From NCBI RefSeq assembly GCF_024298765.1, contig NZ_CP101210.1: a stretch of DNA of 64,000 bases. The stretch is one strand, 5' to 3'. The notes under the pieces are model-generated. The model searched no databases and was not told the DNA's origin. It saw only the letters and a program-made list of their open reading frames with translations. Below, one piece after another: positions 35,870 to 61,774 of this stretch. This stretch comes from Escherichia coli (lineage in GTDB: Bacteria > Pseudomonadota > Gammaproteobacteria > Enterobacterales > Enterobacteriaceae). Made by a program: the position numbers and the translations under genes. Position 1 is the first letter of the stretch, and each line of letters opens with the position of its first letter.

Positions 35870-36199
35870 ATGGAAACTACCAAGCCTTCATTCCAGGACG
35901 TACTGGAATTTGTTCGTCTGTTCCGTCGTAAGAACAAACTGCAACGTGAAATTCAGGACGTTGAGAAAAAGATCCGTGACAACCAGAAGCGCGTCCTGTT
36001 GCTGGACAACCTGAGCGATTACATCAAGCCAGGGATGAGCGTTGAAGCAATCCAGGGCATCATCGCCAGCATGAAAGGTGACTATGAAGATCGCGTTGAC
36101 GATTACATCATCAAAAATGCCGAGCTCTCCAAAGAACGCCGCGATATCTCCAAAAAGCTGAAAGCTATGGGCGAAATGAAAAACGGCGAAGCGAAGTAA
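35870..36199 (+). CDS. yeeX: DUF496 family protein YeeX
   Basis: [49 protein letters not shown]...; start trimmed from ORF 35804. Confidence 0.9.
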
Positions 36200-36299: not shown

Positions 36300-36530
36300 T
36301 TAACAACAGCCTTCTTCTGTATGCAGCAAGGCAAAAAGTTCTGTAACTCCATTGTTATTAACTGCACTGGTTACTAACACGTTGTGCGCTCCAGCTTCCC
36401 GTAACCAACTTTTCACCAAAGATATTTGTTCCATGCTGGCTAAATCTGCTTTGGTTACTACTCCAATGACCGGGTGATTCATGGCCCGGTAGGGCGTTTT
36501 TACCTCTAATTCCTGCTTCAGCGCTGAGAT
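36300..36530 (-). pseudogene. YeeP/YfjP-family GTPase, C-terminal fragment truncated by IS66-family remnant
   Basis: translation ...HPVIGVVTKADLASMEQISLVKSWLREAGAHNVLVTSAVNNNGVTELFALLH matches only the C-terminal third of the intact paralog at 46401-47312. Confidence 0.6.
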
Positions 36531-36534
36531 TCCT

Positions 36535-36712
36535 GCTTGTTGCCGGAAAAGCAGGCACCTGCCGTCTGAACGGTATCGATCCGGAAGCGTATCTGCGCCA
36601 TATTCTGAGCATACTGCCGGAATGGCCCTCCAACCGTGTTGACGAACTCCTGCCATGGAACGTAGTTCTCACCAATAAATAAGCGTCAATACGGTGCTCC
36701 GTTGACGCTTAC
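36535..36712 (+). mobile_element. IS66-family element, 3' terminal fragment (TnpC C-terminus plus right IR)
   Basis: plus-strand translation ...AGTCRLNGIDPEAYLRHILSILPEWPSNRVDELLPWNVVLTNK* parallels the C-terminus of the IS66 TnpC at 50853-52388; ends with cgcttac (GTAAGCG IR). Confidence 0.7.
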
Positions 36713-37096
36713 TTTAATCCGTTTTCTGAGCTTAGATTTTTCTGTTCCTACCCAGACCGTGGATTTGGAATTCATTTTTTGTCAGGTCAATGCTAATCGT
36801 TAAAACGGCCATAACGCACCTCCACTGGAAGGTTTATCAGTAATATCCTACCGTTGCTTCATGGTCGGGGCGTCCATTCCATTATTATCGGTTTTCCTTT
36901 CTGTTTATAAATGAAAACGCCAGCTGTATTCAGGCTGGCGTCAGGGGAAATGAAGCCTGTTGAGTGAGATTCACCGGTTCTGGTGCAGAAGCTGCAGATG
37001 GCGCAGGGTAAGGACATCTTCTCTTGCCTGCTTAATACAGGACAACAGTGCTGTTTCTGTGGTTAATGGCACTATACCCTGCATCACTGCATTGTC

Positions 37097-37291
37097 TTAC
37101 AGCAACTGGTGAGGGCTGGCATAAGTTGCCGGTGTTTCGGTAGAGTCACGGTCATCCACCACGCGGAGTGAATAACCGTTTTCAGCGGCCTTATTAATCA
37201 GTTCAGTGATATTAACACCATCAATGTCAACGACAATGTGCCCCATATCCAGCGCCTGTACGTTAACGCTGTCGGCTTCCAGTGTCATCAT
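37097..37291 (-). CDS. yeeW: CP4-44-type prophage protein YeeW-like
   Basis: 64 aa, directly downstream of the cbtA-like gene. Confidence 0.6.
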   Translation of the reverse strand: MMTLEADSVNVQALDMGHIVVDIDGVNITELINKAAENGYSLRVVDDRDSTETPATYASPHQLL

Positions 37292-37661
37292 TTCGCCTCC
37301 GGATACTTACCCAGGGTAATGTTATTTACCGTTCTGTAATTGTCGCGGGTCATCAGGCCGGTCGCCCTGCGAGCCCGGAGGATATCGATGCTGTTTATTA
37401 ACTGAGAGCGGGTACAGGCGCTGAATCCCGGCTGGTCGGTAGCACCAGCGCGTATTTTTCCACGAGAAAGTTCACCGCATCACACAGTGAAATGCCTGCC
37501 TCAATATGCTGCTCAATCACACGTTCATCGGCAAAAGGTGTGTCATTCAGTGTGAGGCCATAGTGCTGGTCCAGCAGTCGGGACAGCAGTATCTGCCAGA
37601 TTTCAACAGGAGACGGGCGAGAACTGGCCGCCTGCCCGGGTAATACAGGTAATGTTTTCAT
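37288..37661 (-). pseudogene. cbtA: CbtA-type toxin (cytoskeleton-binding), apparent 1-bp frameshift
   Basis: N-terminal [73 protein letters not shown] then premature stop; the conserved tail ...[51 protein letters not shown] resumes in another frame; span is 374 nt. Confidence 0.65.
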
Positions 37662-37749
37662 ACTGAAGATTTTCCTGATATGCAGATATAAAAATGGAAA
37701 AGTGGCGTGGTGAAAACACCAGGCCGTAGCAGAAGGCTATTCTGGAGAG

Positions 37750-38118
37750 TTAATTTTTCATTTCGGGCGTCGGATAAACAGCCAGATAAACGTAACCACA
37801 ACTGCTGAGGGTATCGGCTTTGCAGGTCAGCCCTTTTGCATACAGCGTGACGGTATGCTGATGGCGGGGATTCAGTTCACCGCTGGTGAGCATGAGTTCC
37901 AGTTGTTTCATCAGCAGCGGAAAGGCCTGGTCCAGGTGGTACGCATCTGCATCGCTGAACAGGCCTCTGATACCGGCGCGGTCGGCAAGGTAATGCAACC
38001 GGTTACCCTCCTGCACCAGACGTGCCCCGAAACAGGGCGTCACGGTGCAGGGCAGCCCCCACCAGGGGCGGTCGTGATTGTCGTCGGGAAGTGTTGTCCC
38101 GGGGAGTGTGTCTGACAC
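37750..38118 (-). CDS. cbeA: CbeA-type antitoxin
   Basis: 122 aa; MSDTLPGTTLPDDNHDRPWWGLPCTVTPCFGARLVQEGNRLHYLADRAGIRG... Confidence 0.9.
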   Translation of the reverse strand: MSDTLPGTTLPDDNHDRPWWGLPCTVTPCFGARLVQEGNRLHYLADRAGIRGLFSDADAYHLDQAFPLLMKQLELMLTSGELNPRHQHTVTLYAKGLTCKADTLSSCGYVYLAVYPTPEMKN

Positions 38119-38197
38119 GATAAAATCCTTACAGAAAATCGGTTAAGAACGGTCCGGTAATGGCGATAATTCTGCTCATCAGAATGCCCTTACTGAC

Positions 38198-38419
38198 TCA
38201 GTTCAGAGTGACGCTCATCAGCCGGACATACGGGCCAAAACTGTCCTTACGGCGTTCAGCAAACACGGCCAGCACACCGGGAATATCCTGCACTTCACGA
38301 CCGGTATACGTTTCAGTGCTGCCGTGCCAGCGGTATTTGCCGGTACAGAACGGAAAAAGACGGGATGCAGGATGCTGTTGGTGAATACGCATGGCTTCAC
38401 CACGGGTGATGATTTTCAT
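38198..38419 (-). CDS. yeeT: DUF987 family protein YeeT-like
   Basis: 73 aa; conserved position between radC-like and antitoxin genes. Confidence 0.8.
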   Translation of the reverse strand: MKIITRGEAMRIHQQHPASRLFPFCTGKYRWHGSTETYTGREVQDIPGVLAVFAERRKDSFGPYVRLMSVTLN

Positions 38420-38481
38420 AATGGGATACCTCTGAAGACAGAAGATAAAAGTGAAAACAGGTGTGATGTGGTTGTGACGGG

Positions 38482-38958
38482 TTAAAGCAGACCATGTTCG
38501 GCAAAGGAGAAAACCTGGCTGCCACCGACTATCAGATGGTCCGGCACCCGGATATCCACCAGGCCCAGTGCCTGTACCAGACGTTCCGTGATAAGGCGGT
38601 CTGCCTTGCTGGGTGTGACTTCACCGGACGGGTGATTGTGCGCCAGCACCACGGCAGCGGCATTGTGGTACAGGGCGCGTTTAATCACTTCCCGGGGATG
38701 GACTTCCGTGCGGTTGATGGTGCCGGTGAAGAGGGTTTCACCGGCAATCAGCTGATTCTGGTTATTCAGATACAGTACCCGGAATTCTTCACGCTCCAGT
38801 CCCGCCATGTTCAGAATCAGCCATTCCCGTGCCGCACGGGTGGAGGTGAAGGCCACGCCGGGTTCATGAAGATGACGGTCCAGGGTTTTCAGGGCCCGCT
38901 GAATAAGGCTGCGCTCGCCGGGCGTCATCGCTCCGGGCAGAAAGGAAAGCTGTTGCAT
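38482..38958 (-). CDS. yeeS: RadC-like JAB-domain protein
   Basis: 158 aa; HNHPSGEVTPSKADRLITERL JAMM motif. Confidence 0.85.
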   Translation of the reverse strand: MQQLSFLPGAMTPGERSLIQRALKTLDRHLHEPGVAFTSTRAAREWLILNMAGLEREEFRVLYLNNQNQLIAGETLFTGTINRTEVHPREVIKRALYHNAAAVVLAHNHPSGEVTPSKADRLITERLVQALGLVDIRVPDHLIVGGSQVFSFAEHGLL

Positions 38959-38969
38959 GGCCTCTCTCC

Positions 38970-39449
38970 TCAGTCAATGATGCGCATAATGGCGCTGCAT
39001 TCCGGATGCTGCAGGGCGTAATCCCGCAGCCGGTAATAATGGACCGTCATGGCATAACACTCCGTACGACAGGCGTGATGACTGTACGTCATCAGACAGG
39101 CAGCAATGCCGGCGGCTTCCGGGCTCATTTCAGCGCGGTTACCGTTCATGGCACTGAACAGTACCCATGTTTCGTCATCATCGTCATCCGGTTCGGGTGC
39201 CATAAATGCGCCACCGTTGTTCAGGGTGTACAGATTCCAGATACCCCCGCAGTAGTCTTCACACAGACGGTCCATCCAGCCGAAGATACGGGGCTCCAGG
39301 GTCACCCACTGTGGAATGAGGCCAAAATGCTGCGGCCAGAAGCTGATGCGCTGTTCATCAGGGACGAGGCTGGCAACCAGCTGAGGCGGATTATTCTCTG
39401 GTGTTGTAGCTGAATAAATTGTGGGGGTATTCTGAGAAACGGTCTTCAT
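38970..39449 (-). CDS. antirestriction protein (KlcA/ArdB/YfjX-like)
   Basis: 159 aa with acidic stretch EPDDDDDETW; position upstream of radC-like gene as in CP4-type islands. Confidence 0.7.
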   Translation of the reverse strand: MKTVSQNTPTIYSATTPENNPPQLVASLVPDEQRISFWPQHFGLIPQWVTLEPRIFGWMDRLCEDYCGGIWNLYTLNNGGAFMAPEPDDDDDETWVLFSAMNGNRAEMSPEAAGIAACLMTYSHHACRTECYAMTVHYYRLRDYALQHPECSAIMRIID

Positions 39450-39530
39450 GAGATAACTCCTTAAATAACAAATAAATGTGTGTTTTTCAGGAACGAAAGC
39501 TGAATGATTCCCTCACTCAGGGAAACGGCA

Positions 39531-40352
39531 TCAGCGCAGGCTCTCCAGCATCGTTTCTGCCATCACCCACAATGCGCGGTTGAGCTTAATGTCGGTATCA
39601 ATGCTGTGAATGGCCCGGGTATGGATACGTTTTCCTCTGGCACTGCGCCCGGAAATCCCGCCTTTCAGCATATTCTCCTGGATGGTCTGATAAGCACTCC
39701 ACAGGTCCTTACCGTAATCCTCCCGGCGTCGTGGTGTCAGAATGTCGGCGGTGGTGACGGGCTGATGTTCGTCACCATAACGGTAAGTCAGCGCCGCCTG
39801 TGCCAGCGCCTGGCGTGCCGGTGGCGGCAGGACCAGCGACTGCATGGCATCACGCTTCTCCTCTATCCGGTCAAACACGCCCACCACCTCGTAAGCCCCT
39901 TCAATGACTCTGTCCACCACATTTCCCCGGTGCGGAACACGTACTTCCCCCAGAGACTGACCACAGACGCAGCCGTTCTGGCAGACGAACCTGAAGTACC
40001 CCGGCAGCATCTGGTAGCTGGAGGTACCGTCATGAGAGTTGAGCAGAATAATTTCAGGGACATGTTCTCCGTTTATCTCTCCGGCCCGCCGCAGACGCAG
40101 CATGTGTTTTGTGTATCCCCGGCGGCCCGGGTCGCGCACACGGGTCTGGCAGGCGAAGAACGGCTGAAAGCCTTCCCGCTGCAGATTTTCCAGGACGGTA
40201 ATGGTGGGAATGTACGCATACCGTTCACTGCGGGAGGTGTGCCGGTCTTCCCCAAAAATACTGGGTACATGGCGTATCAGTTCTTCATGTGTCAGCGGAC
40301 GGTCACGGCGTATCTGGTTTGCAGCATAACCAAAACGACTTGCTAATCGCAT
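39531..40352 (-). CDS. DUF932-family protein (YfjQ/YafZ-like)
   Basis: 273 aa; conserved member of the CP4-type island backbone. Confidence 0.65.
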   Translation of the reverse strand: MRLASRFGYAANQIRRDRPLTHEELIRHVPSIFGEDRHTSRSERYAYIPTITVLENLQREGFQPFFACQTRVRDPGRRGYTKHMLRLRRAGEINGEHVPEIILLNSHDGTSSYQMLPGYFRFVCQNGCVCGQSLGEVRVPHRGNVVDRVIEGAYEVVGVFDRIEEKRDAMQSLVLPPPARQALAQAALTYRYGDEHQPVTTADILTPRRREDYGKDLWSAYQTIQENMLKGGISGRSARGKRIHTRAIHSIDTDIKLNRALWVMAETMLESLR

Positions 40353-40572
40353 ACTTTGCTCCTTATCGGTGGTTAAGATTTACTGGTGCAATAAATGAAA
40401 AAAGCCGCGTCTCCCGGAGAAGACGCGGCCTGACGGGTGAAATGAATAAGGTTTATTGTCTGAGAGGCCTTTCACTGGCGAGCCACGCATTAAGCGGCTT
40501 TCCGGTAACAATGGCTGGGGCTGTATTTACCTTTGATATTAATAATGTGCAGAGAAACGCATGGTTTACTCC

Positions 40573-40983
40573 TTAGATTTTAAGTTTGTCCTGGGCTACA
40601 ACGACAGGTTTTCCGGATGTGTCGATGACTCCTACCGTCGGTACGCCATTTTTGATTTCGAAGAACGGTTTGTTGCTACCTGAGCACAGTTGATTGTCCC
40701 CGTATTCAATCATTTGTGCTTTCCCGGTTTTCAGGTTAACTACCGAGACAGTGTAGTCGTAGCACCAGGCACCACCACGTTCAAGCACGAAAACATAGCT
40801 GTTATCTTTATAGTTGAACTGATTCTTTGTCTGGCAATTCATACCGTCAATTTCGGTACAGGAAAACGCTTCTGTAGTATTAACGTATTTGATGTTATTT
40901 GGCAGTTTTACTTGTTTCGCAGTAGCGAAGACAGAGAACAGAATAGTTACAGCAACGAGTAAAGTTTTGATAAAAGTTTTCAT
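40573..40983 (-). CDS. small secreted protein, unknown function
   Basis: 136 aa; N-terminal signal peptide MKTFIKTLLVAVTILFSVFATA; 4 Cys in mature part; hairpin plus T-run terminator at about 40401-40440. Confidence 0.6.
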   Translation of the reverse strand: MKTFIKTLLVAVTILFSVFATAKQVKLPNNIKYVNTTEAFSCTEIDGMNCQTKNQFNYKDNSYVFVLERGGAWCYDYTVSVVNLKTGKAQMIEYGDNQLCSGSNKPFFEIKNGVPTVGVIDTSGKPVVVAQDKLKI

Positions 40984-40998
40984 GATAGACTCCTTAAA

Positions 40999-41487
40999 TT
41001 AGTTAACCGCAGCTACGTAGTTTTTCACCAGATACGCGAATTCATGCACGCCAATTTCACCGAACCAAACCAGGTAGGCCGGGTCATCTAAACCAAAGTA
41101 ACGGTAGCCAACAACTTCATGGGTTTTTGGGTTATAGAGTGTTACGATAAAGTCCCAGCCGCAGGTATTGGCTTTGCAACCGTCGCCCTGGAACCAGACT
41201 GTACCGTTAATGTTTACTGGCGTGATACCTCCACCAGGGCCATCCATATAGCCGCCTTTACCGAACATGCCGCTCAGTCCGACCGGTTTTAATGCTTTGT
41301 CGATAGCGGCTTTGTAGGTAGCGTCACCTTCGTACAACTCGTACGTTGATGGACACGCTCCAGGTTGTTCAGCCCAGGCTTCCGGGTTACAACTAAGAGC
41401 TTGTTTTACGGTAGCCGCTTCTGCGTTAAAGTTAAAGCCCGTGAACAGAACCGCCAGAAATAACATAAGGGTATGTAAACGTTTCAT
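40999..41487 (-). CDS. secreted protein, unknown function
   Basis: about 163 aa from internal Met of ORF 40999-41790; signal peptide MKRLHTLMLFLAVLFTGFNFNAEA; Cys-containing motifs GACPST and DGCKANTCGWD. Confidence 0.55.
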   Translation of the reverse strand: MKRLHTLMLFLAVLFTGFNFNAEAATVKQALSCNPEAWAEQPGACPSTYELYEGDATYKAAIDKALKPVGLSGMFGKGGYMDGPGGGITPVNINGTVWFQGDGCKANTCGWDFIVTLYNPKTHEVVGYRYFGLDDPAYLVWFGEIGVHEFAYLVKNYVAAVN

Positions 41488-41817
41488 TGTAAATATTCTT
41501 CCGTTGTAAATGGCGCTGGAAAATTTCTCATCAGTGAAACCTTCCGGAAGTTTCCCCCCCTTGTATGATGTATATCGCCAGTATTTTATTTCATCCCGGC
41601 TGTAATTTTTATATTCCCCGGCACGTGCAATAACGCTGACCAGAGATATAAGGCTCATTAATAACTTTACAGGTAATTTCATAATTAAATTTCCAGTGAG
41701 TGAATTGACAGGTGAGGGGTAAAACTTTCTCTCAGGTAATATATATATGAAAATATTTTCAATAACACCAGACAGGAAAAACACCACCACAGGCGGTGGC
41801 GTTTCTTTGGGGCGTCT

Positions 41818-42888
41818 TTATTTAATCCGGGCCATCGCGTTTCTCAGTGCCAAATCTGCCTCTTCCGTTATATCCAGGCTTTTCTGCAATACCGCCTCTG
41901 ACCGGGTCAGTGCCTGACGTGCTGCCAGCGGTTTCCGGATATGCTCCATCGCCAGCATCGTGTCTTCATAGCCCTGCTGACGCCAGGCGTCGGTATGTGC
42001 CGATGTAAAACTGAGCAGACCGCCGCTGTTGCCACCATCACCTGCATATTTCAGCCTTTTCCGGGGACGGATCTCAAGGATTGTGGTGTCCGGAAAAGCC
42101 TGGCGATCCCATAAAGAACCCTCACTCAGATGCGTCACAATCACCATATTGCATCCGGCATCGACCAGAGGCGTCACAGGGGTATTTCCCTGCATATTTC
42201 GCCATCCTCCCATACCACCATCACCGAACATTGTCCCCTGAACCTCACGGGGACGGAACAGCAGGGGCAGCGCGGCTGACGCAAGCAGAGCCTCTTTCTG
42301 CTGTCCGCGGGGCAGGCTCTGGATATGCTGAAAAACGGCGTTTTTCGTGGTTCCGACACCCAGTTCAGCACGAATGCAGTCAATAATATCCTGCATGCCC
42401 CCTTCTGTGGGGTACAGCGACACATACAGCGGTAGCCCGTCTGCCAGAGCATCAGTATCAAGATAATGATCCATCAGCGCTGTCAGGGGCTCATCTGACA
42501 ACAACGGCTGAGCCATCAGATTGTCAAACCCGTTGATTGTCGATATATGGCGAAGAAGCGTCGTAAGCAGTGCTCCTGCACGTCCGGGGATCTGGCAGAG
42601 GTTCATTGCCTGGAACAATTTTTTCAGCAATGAAAAGTAAACCAATCTGTTTACCGACAGCACCTGATTATTCCCCAGATGATCCCAGAGCGCCTCCAGG
42701 CGTACGGCAGCTTCTGACAGATCGGGAGAGGCCGCGATAATGGCACCATTGAATGCGCCAATGCTGGCCCCTGAAACCATGCTGATCTGTGTACCACACT
42801 CTGCCAGTGCCTTAACCACTCCCGCCTGATAAGCGCCCACCGCCCCGCCACCGGACAGCACCAGCCCCGTTTTCATTTCTGTACTCAT
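41818..42888 (-). CDS. patatin-like phospholipase
   Basis: 356 aa; oxyanion-hole SGGGAVGAYQAG, nucleophile elbow GASIG, catalytic Asp motif FGDGGM; start codon overlaps upstream gene stop. Confidence 0.85.
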   Translation of the reverse strand: MSTEMKTGLVLSGGGAVGAYQAGVVKALAECGTQISMVSGASIGAFNGAIIAASPDLSEAAVRLEALWDHLGNNQVLSVNRLVYFSLLKKLFQAMNLCQIPGRAGALLTTLLRHISTINGFDNLMAQPLLSDEPLTALMDHYLDTDALADGLPLYVSLYPTEGGMQDIIDCIRAELGVGTTKNAVFQHIQSLPRGQQKEALLASAALPLLFRPREVQGTMFGDGGMGGWRNMQGNTPVTPLVDAGCNMVIVTHLSEGSLWDRQAFPDTTILEIRPRKRLKYAGDGGNSGGLLSFTSAHTDAWRQQGYEDTMLAMEHIRKPLAARQALTRSEAVLQKSLDITEEADLALRNAMARIK

Positions 42889-43790
42889 GCAGCCCCCTTC
42901 TGAAATATTTCATCGACCATACTTTCAGAGAGGCGTTCTGCAGAGCAGAGGCGAGGCATGCGAACCGGTAAGTGTTCTGCAGCCTGCGTGGTTGACCAGA
43001 TCACCGGATGCTGCTCTTCACTGCACCAGTCTCCCAGCCAGTTAATCGCGTCATGCCACTCGTTATCTGCCTGCTCCCGGCCCTGACCACCAAGCCAGTC
43101 CAGAGTGTTCAGACGCACGGTTGCACTACCGCCACTCTCCTGTGCCATCTGCGTTAATGCTTTATGTCTGAGAATATCCAGTAGCTGGTTAACCTGGCCT
43201 GTTTCGCTCTGACGTATCACATCACCAAACGCGCCCCAGCGAAGCTCTTCAAGTGCCACATAACAACGTCCGGCAGGGGAAAATGACGCATATCGCCCGG
43301 CGCTCCACCATGAGAATATCTGCTCAAGATGTAACTGCGCCCGCTGAACCTGGTCAACACGGTGGAGTTTTTCTTCAAGATGATTCAGTTTATGGTGAAC
43401 CTGATCGGCCAGGGTGAGTAACTGCTCCCGCGTATCTGCGGAATAATGCGCCAGCCTGGCTGTATCACTGACCAGTGAACTGACCCTGTCGTTTACCCGG
43501 GTAATCGCGTAGTTTGTGGTGGCAAGTGACGTTGTCAGCTCCGTCAGCCAGCGCAGGGATGCCTCAACGCCCTGTGCAAGCGAAGCATTGATGGCATTCT
43601 GCCGTGCAGCACCTTCGCCGCTCAGCCCCTCTTTTAACCGCCGGAAGAACGTGCGCTCTCCGGCCGTGCGGATATGCTCCTGTGCAACATCGATACCGTT
43701 TGCGAAATCAACCACAAATTTTTCAGGAAGACAGGTGAGTACCTGACATACCCGGTTATCAGCAATTTGTTGAATAAATGGTGAAGTCAC
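42885..43790 (-). CDS. coiled-coil protein, possible YjcZ-like partner of dynamin-like GTPase
   Basis: 301 aa, helical/coiled-coil character, no enzymatic motif seen; overlapping stop/start junctions with both flanking genes. Confidence 0.5.
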   Translation of the reverse strand: MTSPFIQQIADNRVCQVLTCLPEKFVVDFANGIDVAQEHIRTAGERTFFRRLKEGLSGEGAARQNAINASLAQGVEASLRWLTELTTSLATTNYAITRVNDRVSSLVSDTARLAHYSADTREQLLTLADQVHHKLNHLEEKLHRVDQVQRAQLHLEQIFSWWSAGRYASFSPAGRCYVALEELRWGAFGDVIRQSETGQVNQLLDILRHKALTQMAQESGGSATVRLNTLDWLGGQGREQADNEWHDAINWLGDWCSEEQHPVIWSTTQAAEHLPVRMPRLCSAERLSESMVDEIFQKGAA

Positions 43791-46183
43791 AGCATTGTCT
43801 CCAGTTCTTCCCTTAACGCCTTACTGTCAGTAATGAGCTCAGGAACTCTTTCATTTAACGCCTGAAGACGCCCGGTCAGCCGTTCCTGCGCCTGCTGATC
43901 GCGTTTATGATCTTCAGAGCTCTGAATCAGCGTGTTACGCAGCTGTTCAACTTTCTCCCTGAATGTACAGAAAAAGGCATCGATTTCCTGGCGGACGGGC
44001 TGGTTAATATCCTGCTCAATGGATGCCTGCAGCTCCCCGAAATATGCCCGGGTCAGTGACATCACCTCCTTCCTGACCTTGTTGATATTGATAACACTGC
44101 GGCTCACATCCACGTTATAGTTTTCCCATCCCCATTCTTTGGTGCCAATCCATCCACAAATCTTTCCAATGAAGCTATCCTTCCGACGGCGACGGGTGAC
44201 TGTCTCCGTTCTTTCCTCCATAAGCGCACTCAGATTTGTTTTTACCGCGAGCCGGGTCTGTAACTGACTGACTGCCGGAAAACTGATTTTTACAGTGAAG
44301 CCCTCATCCGCCAGGCGGGCATTGATACGTCCGGCGATGTTTTCTGTCGCATACAGGGCCGTACCACGAAAACCTGTTTCAATCCCGCTGACGATTTTCT
44401 CCAGCTCAGGCCGGAACTGTGCCTCAGCCTCACTGTGCAGGCTGGTCACGGTCGATTCGATTTGCGTCATCAGTTCAAGGGCTTCCCTGCGATTATTTAA
44501 TGTTATCTCGGGGTTTTCCGGATCAAAGACTCGTATCCTGTCATCCTCCCAGCCCGGGTTATTGATACCGGACCATCGATAAATCTTTCCCCATAATCCG
44601 GACCGGGACCTTCGTTGTTCTGTGTCTTCTTCCTCCAGCATTTGCTGTTCTTTGCGTTTACCGGTTCTGAAATAGTCATTCAGTTCCTCTTCCAGTGAGG
44701 TGCAGACCCCCGTGAGTAATTCCCGGGTTCTGGCATCGATCTCCTCCATGGCCATTCTGACATCAGCGGTCACCTGCTCCTGACAGTCCGCGATTTCCCG
44801 GATATCCGCAAGCAGGCTGGTGATATGCGCCTGCAGTGACTGAATGCTTTGCTGTAGCCCCTGATGGCGTAATGACAGATATTCGCTGACATTTTCCGCA
44901 TTCTGCATCAGTTTTGCGGCGGCAGAATCAACCGCCAGTGCCGCCGCTCTGGAATGGGAACTCTGTATGACTTCCGTTATCAGTTGATCGATAAGTGAGC
45001 CTTCCCACAGGTCTGTTGCCCCTTCAGTTGCCAGTTCGCTGTCTTTACAGACGTAATCTTTTTTCATGCGACCGAAAGCTTCCCTGACAAAATCATCGAC
45101 CCAGGCTTCATCAACAGGAAGGGTTCCGTTTTTCCGTAACTCATGAAGCGCACGGTTAGCCAGGTATGCCTGGCGTGAGGATCCGGGATAAACGCGGGAG
45201 GCGGGCAGCACATCGCTGTTCAGCATTGCCGGAACTTTCTGGCGTACGGCATCTGCCCCATCGCCATTGCGGTCTTTCTCATCAAATTTATTGACCAGCA
45301 CAAACAGGCGGCCAACTGATACGTCCGCAATGGCATTAAGCTCTTTACGGACGTCTTCATCCGCTTTTGAGTTCATCTGGGTGTAATCCATCACTGCCAG
45401 AACCGCAGAAGCTTTCTGCAGTTGATCCCGCATCATCACTTCCATCTGCGGCTGGCCGGCTTCATTAGGGCCGGGGGTATCCAGCAGTGTGAGTGTTCCC
45501 TGGCATGCATCCATCCCCACCAGATGGCTGAATTCCACGTCGATCACCGGCAGTTTCTGCACTTCTGCGTATTCATCAAAAGGAAACTCACTCCCCATTG
45601 CCGCAGCAAGACGAACCAGATCGTTTAACGATGCCAGTCCGGTAAAGATTTCCTCCTCCCCGTGGTATTCATTTTTGAGCCAGCCATCATCCGTCAGAAT
45701 ATCCAGCAGTTCACGGGTATCCCCGGTTTGCAGCAGGGTCTGTGCGACTTGCTGTCCTGCCGGGGTGGCGAGTTTTTCCTGCAGTGTGATTAATAAATTG
45801 CGGACAGGCTGAATATGTTCCAGATGGAGGACCGGCTCAGTTTTTCCGGGAACGTGGCGGATGAGTGTCGGTACAGAGGTCATGGGGCGGTTACGGTTAG
45901 GCAGAATTTCCTGCCCCACAATGGCGTTGATGGTGGTTGATTTGCCTGCTTTCATCGTGCCGACAACAGCCAGCACCATCTCCCTGCGGGCGGTTTTGAT
46001 TTGTTCGCCCTCCAGCTCCTCAATTCTTTTCAGCGCTTTCCGTTTATCAAAAAGCAGCCCGTTTTCGTTCTTACTGTCAGATAACACATCCGGCTCATCA
46101 ACCATTTGCCGGAGCAGATTGATATTCAGTTGCAAAAGCCGGTCGGCTTCATCACAAAGCAGGGCGATGTTCTTTTCGTGCAT
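43787..46183 (-). CDS. bacterial dynamin-like GTPase (CrfC/YjdA/LeoA-like)
   Basis: 798 aa; G1 GTMKAGKST, G3 DTPG, G4 NKFD in N-terminal third; long helical stalk C-terminally; RBS aggaagg upstream. Confidence 0.8.
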   Translation of the reverse strand: MHEKNIALLCDEADRLLQLNINLLRQMVDEPDVLSDSKNENGLLFDKRKALKRIEELEGEQIKTARREMVLAVVGTMKAGKSTTINAIVGQEILPNRNRPMTSVPTLIRHVPGKTEPVLHLEHIQPVRNLLITLQEKLATPAGQQVAQTLLQTGDTRELLDILTDDGWLKNEYHGEEEIFTGLASLNDLVRLAAAMGSEFPFDEYAEVQKLPVIDVEFSHLVGMDACQGTLTLLDTPGPNEAGQPQMEVMMRDQLQKASAVLAVMDYTQMNSKADEDVRKELNAIADVSVGRLFVLVNKFDEKDRNGDGADAVRQKVPAMLNSDVLPASRVYPGSSRQAYLANRALHELRKNGTLPVDEAWVDDFVREAFGRMKKDYVCKDSELATEGATDLWEGSLIDQLITEVIQSSHSRAAALAVDSAAAKLMQNAENVSEYLSLRHQGLQQSIQSLQAHITSLLADIREIADCQEQVTADVRMAMEEIDARTRELLTGVCTSLEEELNDYFRTGKRKEQQMLEEEDTEQRRSRSGLWGKIYRWSGINNPGWEDDRIRVFDPENPEITLNNRREALELMTQIESTVTSLHSEAEAQFRPELEKIVSGIETGFRGTALYATENIAGRINARLADEGFTVKISFPAVSQLQTRLAVKTNLSALMEERTETVTRRRRKDSFIGKICGWIGTKEWGWENYNVDVSRSVININKVRKEVMSLTRAYFGELQASIEQDINQPVRQEIDAFFCTFREKVEQLRNTLIQSSEDHKRDQQAQERLTGRLQALNERVPELITDSKALREELETML

Positions 46184-46244
46184 TATTTAACCTTCCTAAG
46201 ACGCATTTTCATGACAACCACGGAGGAGGTCATTTACTACAAAT

Positions 46245-46279
46245 GATCGTTTATAACGATCGATATGATAGTAACGATC
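46245..46279. promoter_or_regulatory. cluster of three GATC (Dam) sites in 5' region of the dynamin-like operon
   Basis: GATC at 46245, 46258 and 46276; aacgatcgat occurs twice 18 bp apart; 62-96 bp upstream of the GTPase start codon. Confidence 0.5.
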
Positions 46280-46400
46280 GATGTATTCTATTAACTTGAG
46301 AAACACAACGCAAGGGGACAACCCGGGTATGGCTGCGTTTGCATAGTGTTTTCATGGAGTTAAAAATCTGTAACAACAGCCTGGTACATCACCACCGGGT

Positions 46401-47312
46401 TCAGAAGAAAATCCAGTTCCATACCACGCGGGCAACAGAGACCACCGAGTCACGGACGGCGCGCAGAACCGTGCGTGCAACAGAGGCAATGCAGACGCTC
46501 TCCGCCGTGTCAAATATCCGGTCCACCGCACCGGTAAACTGTTCACGGGCCTGAGACCGGACAGACTCCGTGCGCAGCTCGTCCTGCAGGCGGGTCATCA
46601 GGGGACTGGCGGCATGGTCGGGAAGTGCTGTCATGAGCGCACTGACCAGCGTATCCAGTTCCCAGCCGGTGCGGGCCGATACGGCAACAACCCGATGTAC
46701 GGGCCGGAACAGACGGAATACCGCCTCCGTTTTTTCGCGAATGTTCTGTGCCTGTGCGGGAGAAGGCTGAATACCGGCCATATCCCATTCATGGCAGGGC
46801 TCCGTTTTATCGGCCTGCATCACCACAAACAGTACCCGCTGATGTCCCCGGTGCAGGATGTGTCGCCAGAAATACTCATCCACAGACAGGGCACGGTCAT
46901 CGGCTTTAATCAGCCACAGTACCAGGTCCAGTTCGAGCAGAATGTCACGGTACAGGGCTTCATACTCTGCATCCCTGTCCCGGCTCTCGCCCACCCCGGG
47001 CAGGTCAGTGATAACCATGCTGTGACCATGGCCATTCAGACGGAAGCGCTGCACTTCCCGGGGGCCGGCGTGAACATCACTGACCGGGGTGACCTCCCCC
47101 TGAAACAGCGCATTACAGAGTGAGGATTTACCGGCCCCGCTTTTACCCATAATGCCAGGCACGGGTTCGTGACTGGTGAGTTTGCGCAGATGTTCCAGGA
47201 TGTGACGGGAAAGTGAGTAAGGCAGGGAGGAGAGCGGTTTTTCAATTGCCTCAATGGCATCAGACGGATTCATACATGTATTCCCGGTGAAAAAAGACAA
47301 AACCCCGCGCAC
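46401..47312 (-). CDS. YeeP/YfjP/YkfA-family GTPase, apparently intact
   Basis: P-loop GIMGKSGAGKSSL, DLPG, VMQADK motifs; possible start at internal MNPSDAIE (47273). Confidence 0.8.
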   Translation of the reverse strand: MRGVLSFFTGNTCMNPSDAIEAIEKPLSSLPYSLSRHILEHLRKLTSHEPVPGIMGKSGAGKSSLCNALFQGEVTPVSDVHAGPREVQRFRLNGHGHSMVITDLPGVGESRDRDAEYEALYRDILLELDLVLWLIKADDRALSVDEYFWRHILHRGHQRVLFVVMQADKTEPCHEWDMAGIQPSPAQAQNIREKTEAVFRLFRPVHRVVAVSARTGWELDTLVSALMTALPDHAASPLMTRLQDELRTESVRSQAREQFTGAVDRIFDTAESVCIASVARTVLRAVRDSVVSVARVVWNWIFF

Positions 47313-47356
47313 CGGAAAGGTGGCGGGGGATTCACGGAAATAATATCTGTCTGAAA

Positions 47357-48520
47357 TTATCTGGAATCGATTTGGCTGTTCTGCCTGGTTGCCACCAAAT
47401 CATGGTACGCCTGCTCAATCATTTCATTCAGCAGTTTTTTTGGGAGGACACCACGACTTCGGGCAATACTTTCAAGCTGTTTGTGGATTTTTCCGGACAG
47501 TTTCAGAGGGACGGAACCATCAGCACGTTCATCACGCCTTTTTTGTTGCTCCCGGGCACTTTTCAGCTCATCAAGAAGAATCGCTTTATGCTGAATCCTG
47601 GGGGCCTGGAAGGAGACCTGCGTAAACTTCGCTCTGTTCCGTCTGGGATTACTTTCCAGTAAAAACTGTACCTGTTGCTCATTCCAGCCCTCCCAGTTAT
47701 CAAACGTGGCGCAGGCAAACCAGTATTTCTGCTCCGGGGTAAGGGGATTCAGCGGGGTTCCCACACACCGGACCTGCATGGCGTTCCATAACCAGTCACA
47801 CTGTTCACTGTCCCTGCTGTCCACCCACGAAAAGGGGGAGGGGTAATCATTGTTTATGCTGGCCCATTCAGAGAATACTGAGTTGATAATCGTCCTCGTA
47901 GCCTCTGGTCCGGATTTCAGCAGGTAACTGGAGCAGAACCATATAATTTCACGGTAGATTTTATCCGGATGCACGGTGCGCATCGGCTTTTCTCTGGGAC
48001 CGGCAATCTTCGGTTGCGATGGAAACCCCGTGGCAAACCGCAGATGTTCCGGGGGCATTCCTGAACGTTTTTCAGGAATGGGTGTGAGTCCTGCGTTTCT
48101 GGTCTTTTCCGCTTGTCCGGTATTGCCTCCGGCCGGAGTGTTGTCGGGAGTATCTTCCGGAGGCGAGGTGTTTTCATTAGTTGGGGGAACAACAGCAGAA
48201 CTGTCCATCTCCGGAATGGGTTGAGGGGCATAATCACTGTGGTAGCCAGGGGAAAGCGTTAAGTCCCGAAGGATGACATCAGGTTCCGGGCAGTGAGTGC
48301 CACCGGGAGTGAACGGGAGTTGTTGCTTTTGGGAGAAAAATGTATTGTGAATGCGGGTATACAGCTGGAACAGAAAAAAATAAGATGCCCGTGGTTCTTT
48401 TTTTAACCACTGTGTATATTCCTCTATGGCACCGAGCTGTTGTTTGTGCCGTTTTACAGCATCGATATACGGACAGCTGGTGCAGATATCATCCAGTTCC
48501 TTTCCCACAATACACCTCAC
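47357..48520 (-). CDS. hypothetical island protein with low-complexity Pro/Thr-rich linker
   Basis: 387-aa ORF; central PPTNENTSPPEDTPDNTPAGGNTGQ region; C-terminal helical segment; no recognised catalytic motif. Confidence 0.45.
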   Translation of the reverse strand: MRCIVGKELDDICTSCPYIDAVKRHKQQLGAIEEYTQWLKKEPRASYFFLFQLYTRIHNTFFSQKQQLPFTPGGTHCPEPDVILRDLTLSPGYHSDYAPQPIPEMDSSAVVPPTNENTSPPEDTPDNTPAGGNTGQAEKTRNAGLTPIPEKRSGMPPEHLRFATGFPSQPKIAGPREKPMRTVHPDKIYREIIWFCSSYLLKSGPEATRTIINSVFSEWASINNDYPSPFSWVDSRDSEQCDWLWNAMQVRCVGTPLNPLTPEQKYWFACATFDNWEGWNEQQVQFLLESNPRRNRAKFTQVSFQAPRIQHKAILLDELKSAREQQKRRDERADGSVPLKLSGKIHKQLESIARSRGVLPKKLLNEMIEQAYHDLVATRQNSQIDSR

Positions 48521-49992: not shown

Positions 49993-50075
49993 GTAAGCGT
50001 CGTCTGAGTACCGTCTGGTCCCGAATCCAGGATCCTGTAACTTAAGCACCCACTTATTTTGCAGGTGGACACCTC

Positions 50076-50459
50076 ATGCGCGCTAAAGAAAGACTTCCCC
50101 GGAAACACTATTCCCCTGAATTCAAAATGGAACTGGTCAGGCTGGCTCTTGAAGAAGAAGGCAGTATTGCCGCACTGGCCCGGAAACATGACGTCAATGA
50201 TAACCTGCTCTTTAAATGGATAAGGCTCTGGCAGCGTGAAGGGCGGGTCTGTCGGCCCCGAAAAAACTCATCGTCGCTTCCTGCCCTGATACCCGTGCAG
50301 CTTCAGGCGGGCTCTTCTCTCCCAACCTTCGAACTACCATCCTGCTCTCCTCCCGCTACCTGCCACATAAAATGTCGGGGAGGAGAAATAACACTGACTC
50401 ATCCCTCTGCTGAACTCATGAGCACTGTCCTGCGCGAACTGATGCGGGGGCCTGTATGA
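50076..50459 (+). CDS. IS66 family accessory protein (orf1/TnpA)
   Basis: 127 aa; HTH-like N-terminus; first ORF of IS66 element. Confidence 0.8.
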   Translation: MRAKERLPRKHYSPEFKMELVRLALEEEGSIAALARKHDVNDNLLFKWIRLWQREGRVCRPRKNSSSLPALIPVQLQAGSSLPTFELPSCSPPATCHIKCRGGEITLTHPSAELMSTVLRELMRGPV

Positions 50460-50803
50460 TAAATCTTCCCGCAGGCACAAAAATCTGGCTGGTTGCCGGT
50501 ATCACCGATATGCGCAACGGCTTCAATGGCCTCGCCGCAAAGGTGCAGACCGCGCTGAAAGATGACCCGATGTCCGGCCACGTCTTCATCTTCCGGGGAC
50601 GCAGCGGCAGTCAGGTAAAACTGCTCTGGTCCACCGGCGATGGTCTGTGCCTGCTGACAAAGCGACTGGAACGTGGTCGCTTCGCCTGGCCCTCAGCCCG
50701 CGATGGCAAAGTGTTCCTGACGCCGGCGCAACTGGCGATGCTGATGGAAGGTATCGACTGGCGACAGCCAAAGCGGTTACTGACATCCCTGACCATGTTG
50801 TAG
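50456..50803 (+). CDS. IS66 family accessory protein (orf2/TnpB)
   Basis: 115 aa; overlapping start with orf1 stop; typical IS66 organisation. Confidence 0.8.
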   Translation: MINLPAGTKIWLVAGITDMRNGFNGLAAKVQTALKDDPMSGHVFIFRGRSGSQVKLLWSTGDGLCLLTKRLERGRFAWPSARDGKVFLTPAQLAMLMEGIDWRQPKRLLTSLTML

Positions 50804-50852
50804 CGCTCTTTATCCTGGTTGTCGCAGAATAAGCCTGGTAAAATACAGGCTT

Positions 50853-52388
50853 ATGAACGACACCTCTTCTGACGACATCCTTCTGCTGAAACAGCGCCTG
50901 GCCGAACAGGAAGCGTTGATCCACGCCCTGCAGGAAAAGCTGAGCAACCGGGAACGCGAAATAGACCATCTGCAGGCGCAACTGGATAAGCTGCGCCGGA
51001 TGAACTTCGGCAGTCGTTCCGAAAAGGTATCCCGCCGTATCGCGCAAATGGAAGCTGACCTGAACCTGCTGCAGCAGGAAAGCGATACGCTGACCGGCCG
51101 GGTGGATGACCCGGCAGTGCAGCGCCCGCTGCGTCAGACCCGCACCCGCAAACCGTTCCCTGAGTCACTCCCACGGGATGAGAAGCGGCTGCTGCCGACT
51201 GAGCCGTGTTGCCCGGAGTGCGGTGGTTCGCTGAGTTACCTGGGTGAGGATGCCGCCGAACAGCTGGAGCTGATGCGCAGCGCCTTCCGGGTTATCCGGA
51301 CAGTCCGTGAAAAGCATGCCTGCCGTCGGTGCGATCGCATCGTTCAGGCCCCGGCTCCTTCGCGCCCCATCGAACGGGGGATCGCCGGACCGGGGCTGCT
51401 GGCCCGAGTGCTGACCTCAAAGTATGCAGAGCACACACCGCTGTATCGCCAGTCGGAGATCTATGCCCGCCAGGGTGTAGTGTTGAGTCGTTCTGTACTG
51501 TCGGGCTGGGTGGATGCGTGTTGTCGTCTGCTGGCACCGCTGGATGAAGCCCTTCAGCACTATGTCCTGACCGACGGCAAACTCCATGCTGACGATACGC
51601 CTGTCCCGGTGCTGTTGCCAGGCAATAAGAAGACGAAGACCGGGCGCTTATGGACGTACGTTCGAGACGACCGCAACGCCGGATCAGCGCTGGCCCCCGC
51701 AGTGTGGTTCGCTTACAGCCCGGACAGAAAAGGTATCCACCCTCAGACCCATCTTGCAGGCTTCAGTGGCGTACTGCAGGCTGATGCCTACGCCGGGTTC
51801 AACGAGCTCTACCGCGACGGCCATATAAAGGAAGCCGCGTGCTGGGCCCATGCCCGCCGAAAAATCCACGATGTTCACGTCCGTACCCCGTCAGCCCTGA
51901 CGGAGGAGGCGCTGAAACGGATCGGCGAGCTGTATGCCATCGAGTCGGAGCTCAGAGGTAAAAGAGCAGAGGAACGGCAGGCAGTCCGGCACCAAAAAGT
52001 GCTGCCGCTGCTGGCGTCACTGGAGGGGTGGCTGCGGGAGAAACAGAAAACCCTCTCAAGGCACTCAGAACTGGCGAAGGCGTTCGGGTATGCGCTGAAC
52101 CAGTGGCCGGCGCTGACCCGCTATGCAGAAGATGGCTGGGTGGAGGTGGATAATAACATTGCCGAAAACGCCCTACGACTGGTCAGTCTGGGGAGAAAAA
52201 ACTGGCTGTTCTTCGGCTCGGATCATGGTGGTGAGCGCGGTGCGTCACTGTACAGTCTTATCGGGACGTGCAAATTAAACGGCGTGGATCCGGAACGCTA
52301 TCTGCATCATGTACTTGATGTCATCGCCGACTGGCCTGTGAACCGGGTGGGTGCTCTGCTCCCGTGGCGGGTTACTCTGCCCGCCTGA
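50853..52388 (+). CDS. IS66 family transposase (orf3/TnpC)
   Basis: 511 aa; N-terminal leucine zipper, CPECGG...CRRCD zinc motif, DDE region. Confidence 0.9.
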   Translation: MNDTSSDDILLLKQRLAEQEALIHALQEKLSNREREIDHLQAQLDKLRRMNFGSRSEKVSRRIAQMEADLNLLQQESDTLTGRVDDPAVQRPLRQTRTRKPFPESLPRDEKRLLPTEPCCPECGGSLSYLGEDAAEQLELMRSAFRVIRTVREKHACRRCDRIVQAPAPSRPIERGIAGPGLLARVLTSKYAEHTPLYRQSEIYARQGVVLSRSVLSGWVDACCRLLAPLDEALQHYVLTDGKLHADDTPVPVLLPGNKKTKTGRLWTYVRDDRNAGSALAPAVWFAYSPDRKGIHPQTHLAGFSGVLQADAYAGFNELYRDGHIKEAACWAHARRKIHDVHVRTPSALTEEALKRIGELYAIESELRGKRAEERQAVRHQKVLPLLASLEGWLREKQKTLSRHSELAKAFGYALNQWPALTRYAEDGWVEVDNNIAENALRLVSLGRKNWLFFGSDHGGERGASLYSLIGTCKLNGVDPERYLHHVLDVIADWPVNRVGALLPWRVTLPA

Positions 52389-52429
52389 CCAGCTTCACTT
52401 CGTCAATACGGTTCTCACTGCACGCTTAC

Positions 52430-53346: not shown

Positions 53347-53964
53347 TCAACTGTGAGCGGCATCAACCGATGTACGGTATGCCATAAGCACGTACTGATC
53401 CATCAGATTTGTCAGTGGTTCACTCTGACCCTGACGTGCAATGATCCATTGCTCCAGATCTTTTTCTGATTTGTGTTTCAGGTTTTTCGTCCAGTCGTCA
53501 AGGCTGTTTCCGGTCATTAAGTCAAGCCAGCAGAGCCAGACCAGTTTGAGACGTAACTCCGTGCCGCCAAACTGACGGAAGAGGCTGATCAGTTTGTTTG
53601 CCAGAGAATGTTGCTTCAGGCGCTCACATTCAGACAGCAGGATCCCTTCCAGCATCGGATGATGAACCAGCAGGTGTTCGCTGGTGCATAAATTCACCAC
53701 CAGATCATCATCCAGGGACGGGGAGCTCCGTTTGTCCGGACCATAAATCAGCCGGTGCAGACTCTGGGGAACGATGGCAATCTCCGGTTTTTCGCCATTG
53801 AATGACACCCACCCGGGCGTCAGATTATGGAAATAGTAGATATTCGGATGACACACGCCCCATGATACGGCGTGCCGGGTGAAGCCGGTCAGCCATTTCT
53901 GGTAGTTTTCATGGAGCAGCTCGTAACGGGTCTGATACTGTTGTTTCATTTTCATATTCCTCAC
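53347..53964 (-). CDS. hypothetical prophage-island protein
   Basis: 205-aa ORF co-oriented with and downstream of alpA; no motif recognised. Confidence 0.4.
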   Translation of the reverse strand: MRNMKMKQQYQTRYELLHENYQKWLTGFTRHAVSWGVCHPNIYYFHNLTPGWVSFNGEKPEIAIVPQSLHRLIYGPDKRSSPSLDDDLVVNLCTSEHLLVHHPMLEGILLSECERLKQHSLANKLISLFRQFGGTELRLKLVWLCWLDLMTGNSLDDWTKNLKHKSEKDLEQWIIARQGQSEPLTNLMDQYVLMAYRTSVDAAHS

Positions 53965-54042
53965 GGGGGATAACAGGCAGCAGAGCGCCGCCGGCAGGCC
54001 GGAGATTGCGTCTGCTGTGGGCGAAGGGTTAGTGGTTAAAAA

Positions 54043-54249
54043 TTACAGACGGGACTGTGCAATACGCGCCTGCAGCCAGGCTTCCACTTCACTTTTCAGC
54101 CAGCGGGAGCTGCGCCCCATTTTGATGGGCGCAGGAAAGCCCCCATCTTTGATGAGTTTGTCAAACCACTTATCGGTAAGGCCGGTCAGTTGAGTGATAA
54201 ACGCCATGTCGACCATCTGGTCATCCATCAGCGAAACTGGGGTAGCCAT
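54043..54249 (-). CDS. alpA: AlpA-family prophage transcriptional regulator
   Basis: 68 aa from MATPVSLMDDQMVDMAFITQLTGLTDKWFDKLIKDGGFPAPIKMGRSSRWLKSEVEAWL; start trimmed from ORF 54447. Confidence 0.8.
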   Translation of the reverse strand: MATPVSLMDDQMVDMAFITQLTGLTDKWFDKLIKDGGFPAPIKMGRSSRWLKSEVEAWLQARIAQSRL

Positions 54250-56346: not shown

Positions 56347-56599
56347 GCACGACTGGCGCGCCAATACCCGGCAAACCAAAAGTATGGGTTGTTGTCTGGC
56401 GGCAACGATGTATCCACTCGCCCACTGACTGTTTTTTACGTCAGTGTTCCATTGTGTGACAACCACAGTGCTGTAACAGCAACCAGCCTGCTTTACCCAA
56501 ACTCCAGTCCAGATTTTAACTGAACCGCCATTCACACCCTGACCACGCTGCCCGTACCGGGACGGCTGTTGCCTGCGTGTCGTCTGGCGGCTGAGGAAT

Positions 56600-60751: not shown

Positions 60752-60753
60752 GA

Positions 60754-61718: not shown

Positions 61719-61774
61719 ACATCAATCCTTCTATTATAGTAAATGGAGTAACTGGAGTTACCCCATTATTATTA

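Follow-up and report, generated by a model that had tools for sequence, protein, structure and literature searches.

The island CP4-44 of Escherichia coli K-12, which lies beside yeeX without an integrase, is textbook biology of that strain; its gene order is yeeP'-isrC-flu-yeeR-yeeS-yeeT-cbeA-cbtA-yeeW-yoeD-yoeF. It was described as an island that "lacks an integrase", and no excision of it was detected (PMC3105296). CP4-57, at ssrA in the same strain, has the order intA-yfjH-alpA-yfjI-yfjJ-...-yfjP-yfjQ-...-yfjX-yfjY-ypjJ-yfjZ-ypjF and can excise, its intA lying next to ssrA. The "yee module" is a recognized shared module of islands inserted at tRNA genes (PMC11537424). The interval between tmaR (yeeX) and cobU is also the seat of PAI-cobU, which has been catalogued for CFT073, 536, UTI89 and other uropathogenic and related strains, measures 43 kb in CFT073 and has Hma and Fbp listed as its virulence cargo (PMC7545054). 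In addition, a pangenome-graph study has placed a hotspot of horizontal gene transfer after cobU, with propanediol utilization as an alternative path (bioRxiv 10.1101/2025.11.17.686825). The stretch analyzed here, called the window below, comprises 64,000 nucleotides of an E. coli genome (contig NZ_CP101210.1). It very probably represents the chromosome running into the tmaR-cobU variable region and carrying there the orthologue of K-12 CP4-44, which is the PAI-cobU of uropathogenic strains. The feature is thus a known kind of object, a CP4-44/PAI-cobU remnant, at a hotspot that is already published, and in this respect the finding is an ordinary one.

The identification is based on the position of the island, on its junction with the core genome and on its gene order. 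When positions 34000-50000 were compared by megablast with 5,426 complete E. coli genomes, the set to which all counts below refer, the best full-length matches reached 99.6% identity; at least 80% of this query was found in one place in 1,668 genomes, and the median number of matching places was five per genome. In the best match, NZ_AP027813.1 (AP027813 below), RefSeq annotates the his operon, followed further on by sbcB, dacD, sbmC, yeeA and tmaR, after which the variable region begins with a short "EutP/PduV family" open reading frame (ORF), a transposase fragment, a DUF957 fragment, yeeW, a frameshifted cbtA, cbeA, yeeT and yeeS. Next come genes for an antirestriction protein, a DUF932 protein, two hypothetical proteins, a patatin, an RdcB-family protein, a dynamin-family protein, a GTPase family protein and a hypothetical protein; farther on are an IS66 insertion sequence (IS), a helix-turn-helix (HTH) regulator, an "inovirus Gp2 family" protein, zinc-ribbon proteins, an ISL3 element and a phosphotriesterase-related cluster.

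K-12 aligns to the window over 35001-38934, where nucleotide identity is 98.8%, and over 46398-46953 only. The site and the tmaR/yoeF/yoeD junction are the same, and CP4-44 shares the lack of an integrase (PMC3105296). The same junction next to a near-identical backbone is what an orthologue of CP4-44 should display. The two islands differ in the slot beyond yeeS, since K-12 has flu, isrC and yeeR there, while the window has the antirestriction and DUF932 genes, two small proteins, the patatin/YjcZ/dynamin genes, a full-length YeeP-type GTPase gene and the alpA region. K-12 yeeP is cut at the point equal to window position 46953, and everything from there to the yoeA region is missing in K-12, so that yeeP' is a truncated copy of the full-length gene of the window. 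In contrast with the frameshifted gene of the window, cbtA is intact in K-12. SMS-3-5 has the same version of the island as the window, with 98.3% identity over 14 kb and the same cbtA frameshift, the main difference being one IS.

The backbone genes were confirmed in the window with Pfam and with tblastn searches using K-12 CP4-57 proteins. The CP4-57 backbone proteins have one match each, in the order of CP4-57 and at 49-78% identity: 49% for YfjP, 74% for YfjQ, 69% for YfjX, 78% for YfjY, 64% for YpjJ and 67% for YfjZ. From the GTPase to the toxin, the order is GTPase, DUF932, antirestriction, RadC-like, DUF987, CbeA, CbtA and YeeW, as in CP4-57. A first-pass annotation of the window had listed yeeW, cbtA, cbeA, yeeT, a radC-like gene, antirestriction, DUF932, cargo, a GTPase and alpA after yeeX, and this reading is upheld by Pfam, by tblastn and by the RefSeq annotation of AP027813. 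The island is eroded at both ends. On the tmaR side, homology with the serW (tRNA-Ser) island of O157:H7 stops at 36884, which is the start of the DUF4942 gene of that island, and both DUF4942 and the attachment (att) site are missing from the window. At the opposite end an integrase is lacking too, and the island gives way to IS66 and ISL3 elements and to gene clusters unrelated to it. Within the backbone, cbtA is identical to its K-12 counterpart at all 374 aligned bases, the sole difference being a deleted G at position 221; the annotations of AP027813 and SMS-3-5 report this frameshift as well. The toxin gene is thus dead, next to an intact cbeA antitoxin gene.

Directly beyond tmaR lies a short ORF of 118 codons (36300-36656, minus strand), in which the first-pass annotation had seen a truncated second copy of the GTPase gene of the island, at 36300-36530. 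This assignment to the YeeP/YfjP family was refuted, as BLASTP found no similarity between the ORF and the 303-residue YeeP-like GTPase of the island (E = 23), and YfjP, used as a tblastn query, matched the window only once, at 46407-47273. The C-terminal 56 residues of the ORF match Pfam PF10662 (PduV-EutP) over positions 86-142 of its 143-position profile (E 5.9e-13; 49.3 bits for a cut-off of 21). The ORF also matches TIGR02528 (EutP; E 4.9e-11), with a score under the whole-protein cut-off since 40% of the protein remains. The true stub is limited to 36300-36482, the remainder of the ORF crossing IS debris. It keeps residues 88-147 of PduV alone, and both the GPSQCGKTS and the DTPGE motifs of full-length PduV are gone, so that the G domain is not intact; the pduV stub is a pseudogene fragment. 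In pdu-positive E. coli such as strain KFu019, tmaR is directly followed by a full-length pduV gene of 147 codons, then by pduU, T, S, Q, P, O, N, M, L, K, J, H, G, E, D, C and B, and next by pduA, pduF, pocR, a cobalamin riboswitch, a cbi remnant and cobUST. The 183-bp stub is collinear with the 3' end of this last gene of the pdu operon, with 95.6% DNA identity and at an equal distance from tmaR. The window thus shares the pduV 3' end with the pdu allele, of which it holds 60 of the 147 codons of pduV and no other gene.

The sequence that adjoins the stub consists of nested IS debris. The central piece, 96-97% identical to plasmid IS66/ISEc23 tnpC genes, is the 3' end of an IS66-family element, and its last 29 nucleotides are those of the end of the intact IS66 element of the window, which makes position 36712 a true terminal inverted repeat and hence an IS end. 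It is followed by the N-terminus of an IS110 transposase (36713-36812), which translates as MAVLTISIDLTKNEFQIHG... and then runs into a stop. A mere coincidence of boundaries, FDAARGOS_433 having an IS110 element where the window has IS66, was considered and discarded: the pieces at 36483-36553 and 36713-36869 correspond to the opposite ends of that IS110 element, the middle of which would have been lost after the IS66 insertion. The order of events may thus have been that pduV was truncated at an IS110-family element, that an IS66-family element then inserted into the latter, and that a deletion eventually took most of both ISs and left the last 159 bp of the IS66 in place. The exact pduV'/IS junction is common to 3,333 genomes, with K-12 and O157:H7 among them, and it is therefore old.

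A second IS66-family 3' fragment is found at the far end of the window, and the two inverted 3' ends (36578-36715 and 63861-63998) bracket 27 kb that include the island and a php-like cluster. It could thus be imagined that an IS66-family composite transposon brought the ~27-kb segment 36713-63860 into the pdu operon, the inverted 3' ends with their inward terminal repeats being its remnants. This scenario is improbable. With an identity of only 88-90%, the bracketing fragments would derive from distinct elements or from copies of great age, and the left one is inserted into the IS110-family element instead of lying at the edge of the island. A composite transposon should have two complete IS copies and a target duplication, but both flanking copies are 3' fragments whose outer ends are gone, leaving no target duplication to check. 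Moreover, copies of the IS66 family are plentiful in E. coli genomes, as a 301-bp query that includes the 36554-36712 fragment matched a median of two and up to 43 places per genome.

The distribution of the stub was determined with a 346-bp query made of the stub and the tmaR-proximal intergenic segment. It has a match in 5,417 of the 5,426 genomes, once per genome, and the match covers at least 80% of the query in 5,001 of them; some matches end at window position 36482, including that in the pdu-positive KFu019. The stub is therefore present in at least 92% of the genomes, whereas pdu genes occur in 645-832 of them (roughly 12% of strains), most E. coli being devoid of the pdu operon. Several states of the tmaR-cobU interval coexist among strains, namely the pdu operon, an empty site, IS debris, the K-12 version with flu and yeeR, and the version of the window. 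In the island-free strain A16 (locus L005, 8001-8458), tmaR and the stub are almost directly followed by cobU, and in FDAARGOS_433 (locus L010) only ~4.5 kb of IS110, IS30, IS1 and IS4 debris separate the stub from a cbi fragment; these two states reflect large IS-associated deletions. The presence of the stub in A16 and its collinearity with the full pduV of KFu019 argue that the short ORF is a chromosomal relic, the tail of pduV, and no part of any island. The stub would thus mark the former end of a propanediol operon that is now missing from most E. coli genomes. Its K-12 counterpart belongs to yoeF and that of the IS66 fragment is the adjoining yoeD; YoeF of K-12 (118-119 codons) is a chimeric ORF that spans pduV, IS110 and IS66 debris, and the literature on yoeF that was found consists of gene lists only. 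As the annotated CP4-44 feature of K-12 reaches into yoeF, the pduV fragment might instead be taken as a component of the mobile island that arrived with it. This is most unlikely, however. Nearly every E. coli genome has a single copy of the stub, at a constant distance from tmaR; it is also there when the island is lacking (A16), when nothing but IS debris is left (FDAARGOS_433) and when the pdu operon is intact, in which case it forms the 3' end of that operon (KFu019). Paralogous islands elsewhere end with DUF957, DUF4942 and a tRNA gene, without a piece of pduV.

Islands of the P4 type have an integrase at one end and are inserted in a tRNA or tmRNA gene with att repeats, whereas the island of the window has neither feature and sits in the scar of the pdu operon. 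No tRNA gene was detected in the window by ARAGORN, and no Rfam family in 35-64 kb, the lack of isrC being explained by that of the flu segment. A search for the tRNA-Asn 3' end, which is the att core of the neighboring asn-tRNA islands, with up to three mismatches returned one chance 16-mer in the window. In tblastn searches of the window, IntA had no match at E <= 1e-3, and the best E value among three further tyrosine integrases was 0.58. Direct repeats across 35.8-64 kb were limited to IS66 termini and chance pairs, with no att-like flanks. The first-pass annotation, which had reported a CP4-type backbone without a visible integrase or tRNA attachment site, was thus correct on this point. 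It had also proposed to look for an integrase and att repeats beyond the window; in AP027813, no integrase or tRNA gene is annotated anywhere between tmaR and cobU, and the nearest integrase in the flank, at a tRNA-Asn past the core genes cobU-cobS-cobT-ldtA, is part of a separate element. As it has no integrase and no att sites, the island would be unable to excise and is probably inherited vertically. Excision in trans, with integrases supplied by sister islands of that genome, might be proposed, since the spanning 34000-50000 query matches several places per genome, as expected if there are several related islands, and since AlpA-type regulators can induce the excision of CP4-57, as known for K-12 and used in the methods of PMC3105296. 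It is nevertheless very doubtful that the island is still mobile in this manner, given that att repeats are lacking, that both of its ends are truncated, that no excision was detected for CP4-44 in K-12 (PMC3105296), and that strains of different phylogroups share the identical junction and 98% identity, which points to vertical descent.

The first-pass annotation took the backbone GTPase gene to be doubled through a tandem or rearranged arrangement of CP4-type island copies at this locus. This hypothesis is barely credible: a truncated ORF of a P-loop GTPase family does adjoin yeeX beside an IS66 remnant, as it had observed, and the alpA-distal part of the island is out of canonical order, but this ORF belongs to the PduV/EutP family and not to the YeeP/YfjP family, is collinear with full pduV and is also found in an island-free strain, YfjP matches the window once, and no backbone gene is duplicated. 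P-loop motifs alone are a poor ground for inferring the duplication of an island. Comparison of synteny with CP4-44, CP4-57 and other strains revealed, for the most part, the order of one CP4-57-like island, from which the YfjJ-like gene distal to alpA departs. As for the suggestion that the locus repeatedly acquires cargo, the locus is polymorphic among strains; the pattern does not fit repeated site-specific integration. It fits an old, fixed remnant that is inherited vertically and modified by lineage-specific IS activity and module replacement. Taken as a whole, the element is thus, with high probability, a single orthologue of CP4-44/PAI-cobU, of the P4-integrase type ("yee module"), decayed, immobile and vertically inherited, and not a set of tandem copies.

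Related islands might have provided the material for module replacement. The serW island of O157:H7 has a backbone 85-91% identical to that of the window at the nucleotide level, a patatin-YjcZ-dynamin cargo 94.6% identical and a YeeP-type GTPase gene 95.9% identical. Unlike the window, it keeps a full DUF5983 gene, DUF957, DUF4942, the tRNA-Ser and an intact CbtA-family toxin gene; cah is inserted between its dynamin and GTPase genes, and the two small hypothetical genes are absent. The differences in cargo between yeeS and the GTPase gene are best explained by modules having been replaced or deleted within a conserved backbone; recombination with paralogous islands at other sites of the genome is the probable route. 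PAI-cobU occupies the same tmaR-cobU interval and is a mosaic, and it is named for a non-tRNA flanking gene in a table made mostly of tRNA sites (PMC7545054). The TonB-dependent receptor and other segments found beyond the window in AP027813 belong to it, whereas Hma and Fbp are not in the window.

A few observations weigh against this interpretation. The stub, at 95.6%, is more diverged from KFu019 than tmaR is, at 98.5%, and the pdu operon could be ancestral at this site or have been re-acquired in the ~12% of strains that carry it. The window stops short of cobU, and the far end of the interval was viewed in the 99.6%-identical genome and not in the source genome. The backbone identity of the O157:H7 paralogue is just moderately below that of its cargo, and recombination as the route of exchange is an inference. 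Finally, the alpA-distal YfjJ-like gene is on the opposite strand and does not follow the order of CP4-57, so that a second island remnant might be fused there. The features of the region are listed in Table 1.

Table 1. Coordinates of the tmaR-proximal debris, the island and the adjoining features in the window
Position	Strand	Feature	Evidence
35870..36199	+	tmaR (yeeX), last core gene ahead of the variable region	RefSeq annotation of the 99.6%-identical genome; 98.5% identical to KFu019
36300..36482	-	pduV 3' stub, last 60 of 147 codons, no P-loop; part of K-12 yoeF	Pfam PduV-EutP; TIGR02528; collinearity with KFu019 pduV
36483..36553		IS110-family remnant, one end (70 bp)	Continuous with an IS110-family pseudogene element of ~1.5 kb in FDAARGOS_433
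36554..36712	+	IS66-family (ISEc23-like) 3' fragment, K-12 yoeD; tnpC C-terminus at 36545-36682	Pfam DDE_Tnp_IS66_C, E 5e-16
36713..36869	-	IS110-family remnant, other end; degenerate transposase N-terminus at 36713-36812	98.7% identical to FDAARGOS_433, within an annotated IS110-family pseudogene
36884..37063	-	Truncated distal end of the backbone, with DUF957 fragment at 36971-37063 (93 bp)	End of O157:H7 serW homology at 36884
37097..37291	-	yeeW, DUF5983 N-terminal domain only, 64 residues	Pfam DUF5983_N, E 2e-29
37288..37661	-	cbtA toxin pseudogene, 1-nucleotide deletion	Alignment to K-12 cbtA
37750..38118	-	cbeA antitoxin gene, intact	Pfam CbeA_antitoxin, E 4e-53
38198..38419	-	yeeT (DUF987)	Pfam DUF987, E 4e-39
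38482..38958	-	yeeS, RadC-like JAB protein	Pfam RadC, E 1e-44; K-12 CP4-44 homology stops at 38934
38970..39449	-	Antirestriction protein	Pfam Antirestrict, E 5e-37; 69% identical to K-12 YfjX
39531..40352	-	DUF932 protein (YfjQ-like)	Pfam DUF932, E 5e-52; 74% identical to YfjQ
40573..41682	-	Two hypothetical proteins (136 and 227 residues), absent from the O157:H7 cargo copy	No Pfam, NCBIfam or PADLOC match
41818..42888	-	Patatin-like phospholipase, cargo gene 3	Pfam Patatin, E 3e-24
42885..43790	-	YjcZ/RdcB-like protein, cargo gene 2	Pfam YjcZ, E 4e-70
43787..46183	-	Dynamin-like GTPase, 798 residues, CrfC/YjdA/RdcA paralogue, cargo gene 1	Pfam Dynamin_N, E 8e-18
46401..47273	-	YeeP/YfjP-type backbone GTPase, full length, only copy in the window	49% identity to YfjP over 287 residues; MMR_HSR1
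47357..48508	-	Hypothetical protein of 383 residues, upstream of the GTPase gene	No family match (Pfam, NCBIfam, PADLOC); conserved in AP027813 and SMS-3-5
49993..52429	+	Intact IS66-family element (tnpA, tnpB, tnpC of 511 codons)	Pfam DDE_Tnp_IS66, E 2e-105
53347..54249	-	Hypothetical protein of 200 residues and AlpA-like HTH regulator (54043-54249)	Pfam Phage_AlpA; RefSeq annotation
55777..57402	+	YagK/YfjJ-family protein and two tandem DUF7828/zinc-ribbon proteins	YagK_YfjJ_C, E 1e-47; DUF7828 and Zn_ribbon_11
57686..59305	+	ISL3-family transposase pseudogene, where the integrase end is expected	Pfam DDE_Tnp_ISL3; RefSeq "internal stop"
59717..63755	-	Cluster of phosphotriesterase-related, DMT transporter, amidotransferase and PfkB kinase genes	Pfam; last three genes frameshifted in the window
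63861..64000	-	Second IS66-family 3' fragment, inverted relative to 36578-36715, running off the window end	138 nucleotides, 90% complementary

The cargo region between the DUF932 and GTPase genes (40573-46183, minus strand) ends with a triad of overlapping genes for a dynamin-like GTPase, a YjcZ-family protein and a patatin. The first of these proteins aligns end to end with NF007368 (CrfC), with 558 bits for an equivalog cut-off of 1146 and thus below the level of an equivalog. With a YjcZ-family partner encoded by an overlapping gene of the same operon, it forms a pair of the RdcA/RdcB type. In K-12, the core-genome paralogues RdcA/RdcB (YjdA/YjcZ) activate the diguanylate cyclase DgcE via GTP hydrolysis (PMC6510439). 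The order of the genes, that for the dynamin-like GTPase and then that for the YjcZ-family protein, is the same in both pairs, but the cargo pair is always followed by a patatin gene and is borne on mobile islands in several genera. The GGG oxyanion motif, the GASIG nucleophile elbow (GxSxG) and the DGG motif of the patatin are invariant in eight homologues of 47-64% identity.

DNA of the triad was found in 2,710 genomes, about half of the set. A single genome may have it in as many as five places, and the serW island of O157:H7 is among the other loci that carry it. Outside E. coli, the three genes were contiguous and co-oriented in all five contexts examined, namely Pectobacterium, Pseudomonas fluorescens, Vibrio vulnificus, Plesiomonas and a metagenome contig, with patatin identities of 45-64%. 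Their neighbors in these loci (L012, L013, L015, L017 and L018) are WYL/BrxR regulators, BREX genes, a McrB-like ATPase, a PD-(D/E)XK nuclease, integrases or the CbtA/CbeA backbone. PADLOC recognized no defense system among eight island proteins; as for Eleos, it returned weak, partial matches to LeoBC over short stretches (E 2.7e-5 and 1.5e-5) and no LeoA. Literature searches found no published description of the triad. On the basis of gene content and neighborhood, it may tentatively be envisaged that the triad (41818-46183) constitutes an uncharacterized, horizontally mobile conflict system, for instance an abortive-infection system against phages, in which a GTPase switch of the RdcA/RdcB type would govern a membrane-degrading phospholipase and not a diguanylate cyclase. 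Of all the elements of the window, the triad is the only one that might be worth experiments.

Beyond the GTPase gene, the IS66 element at 49993-52429 is flanked by an 8-bp target duplication, CATTCTCT, for which both junctions were read, and the corresponding site of SMS-3-5 is empty; it is a recent insertion. In the AP027813 copy of this element, tnpC is frameshifted. The assignment of the AlpA-like gene is weak, with 23.1 bits for a Phage_AlpA cut-off of 21, and K-12 AlpA has no tblastn match in the window. The YagK/YfjJ-family protein, encoded in the integrase-proximal part of the island, is 36% identical to YfjJ by tblastn, and in contrast with yfjJ of CP4-57 its gene is beyond alpA on the other strand. 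Beside it, also on the strand opposite to the backbone, two overlapping paralogous genes (56600-57402, plus strand) each code for a DUF7828 and a Zn_ribbon_11 domain.

Compared with AP027813, the php-like cluster of the window has three 1-nucleotide deletions and one 4-nucleotide deletion, at ~61131, ~62416, ~62777 and ~63370, which break the genes for the DMT transporter, the glutamine amidotransferase and the PfkB kinase, intact in both AP027813 and SMS-3-5. These frameshifts could represent either real decay or assembly errors. The tmaR-to-cobU interval of AP027813 is 58.6 kb long and harbors IS fragments, Asp/Asn and C4-dicarboxylate clusters, clbP/clbQ fragments and a broken TonB-dependent receptor gene. 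Beyond the part covered by the window (locus L002, 24434-27259), this mosaic contains fragments of the colibactin gene clbP and of a clbQ-like thioesterase gene, as well as ibrA/ibrB-like genes, and these pieces may be debris from islands that are usually located at asn tRNA genes.

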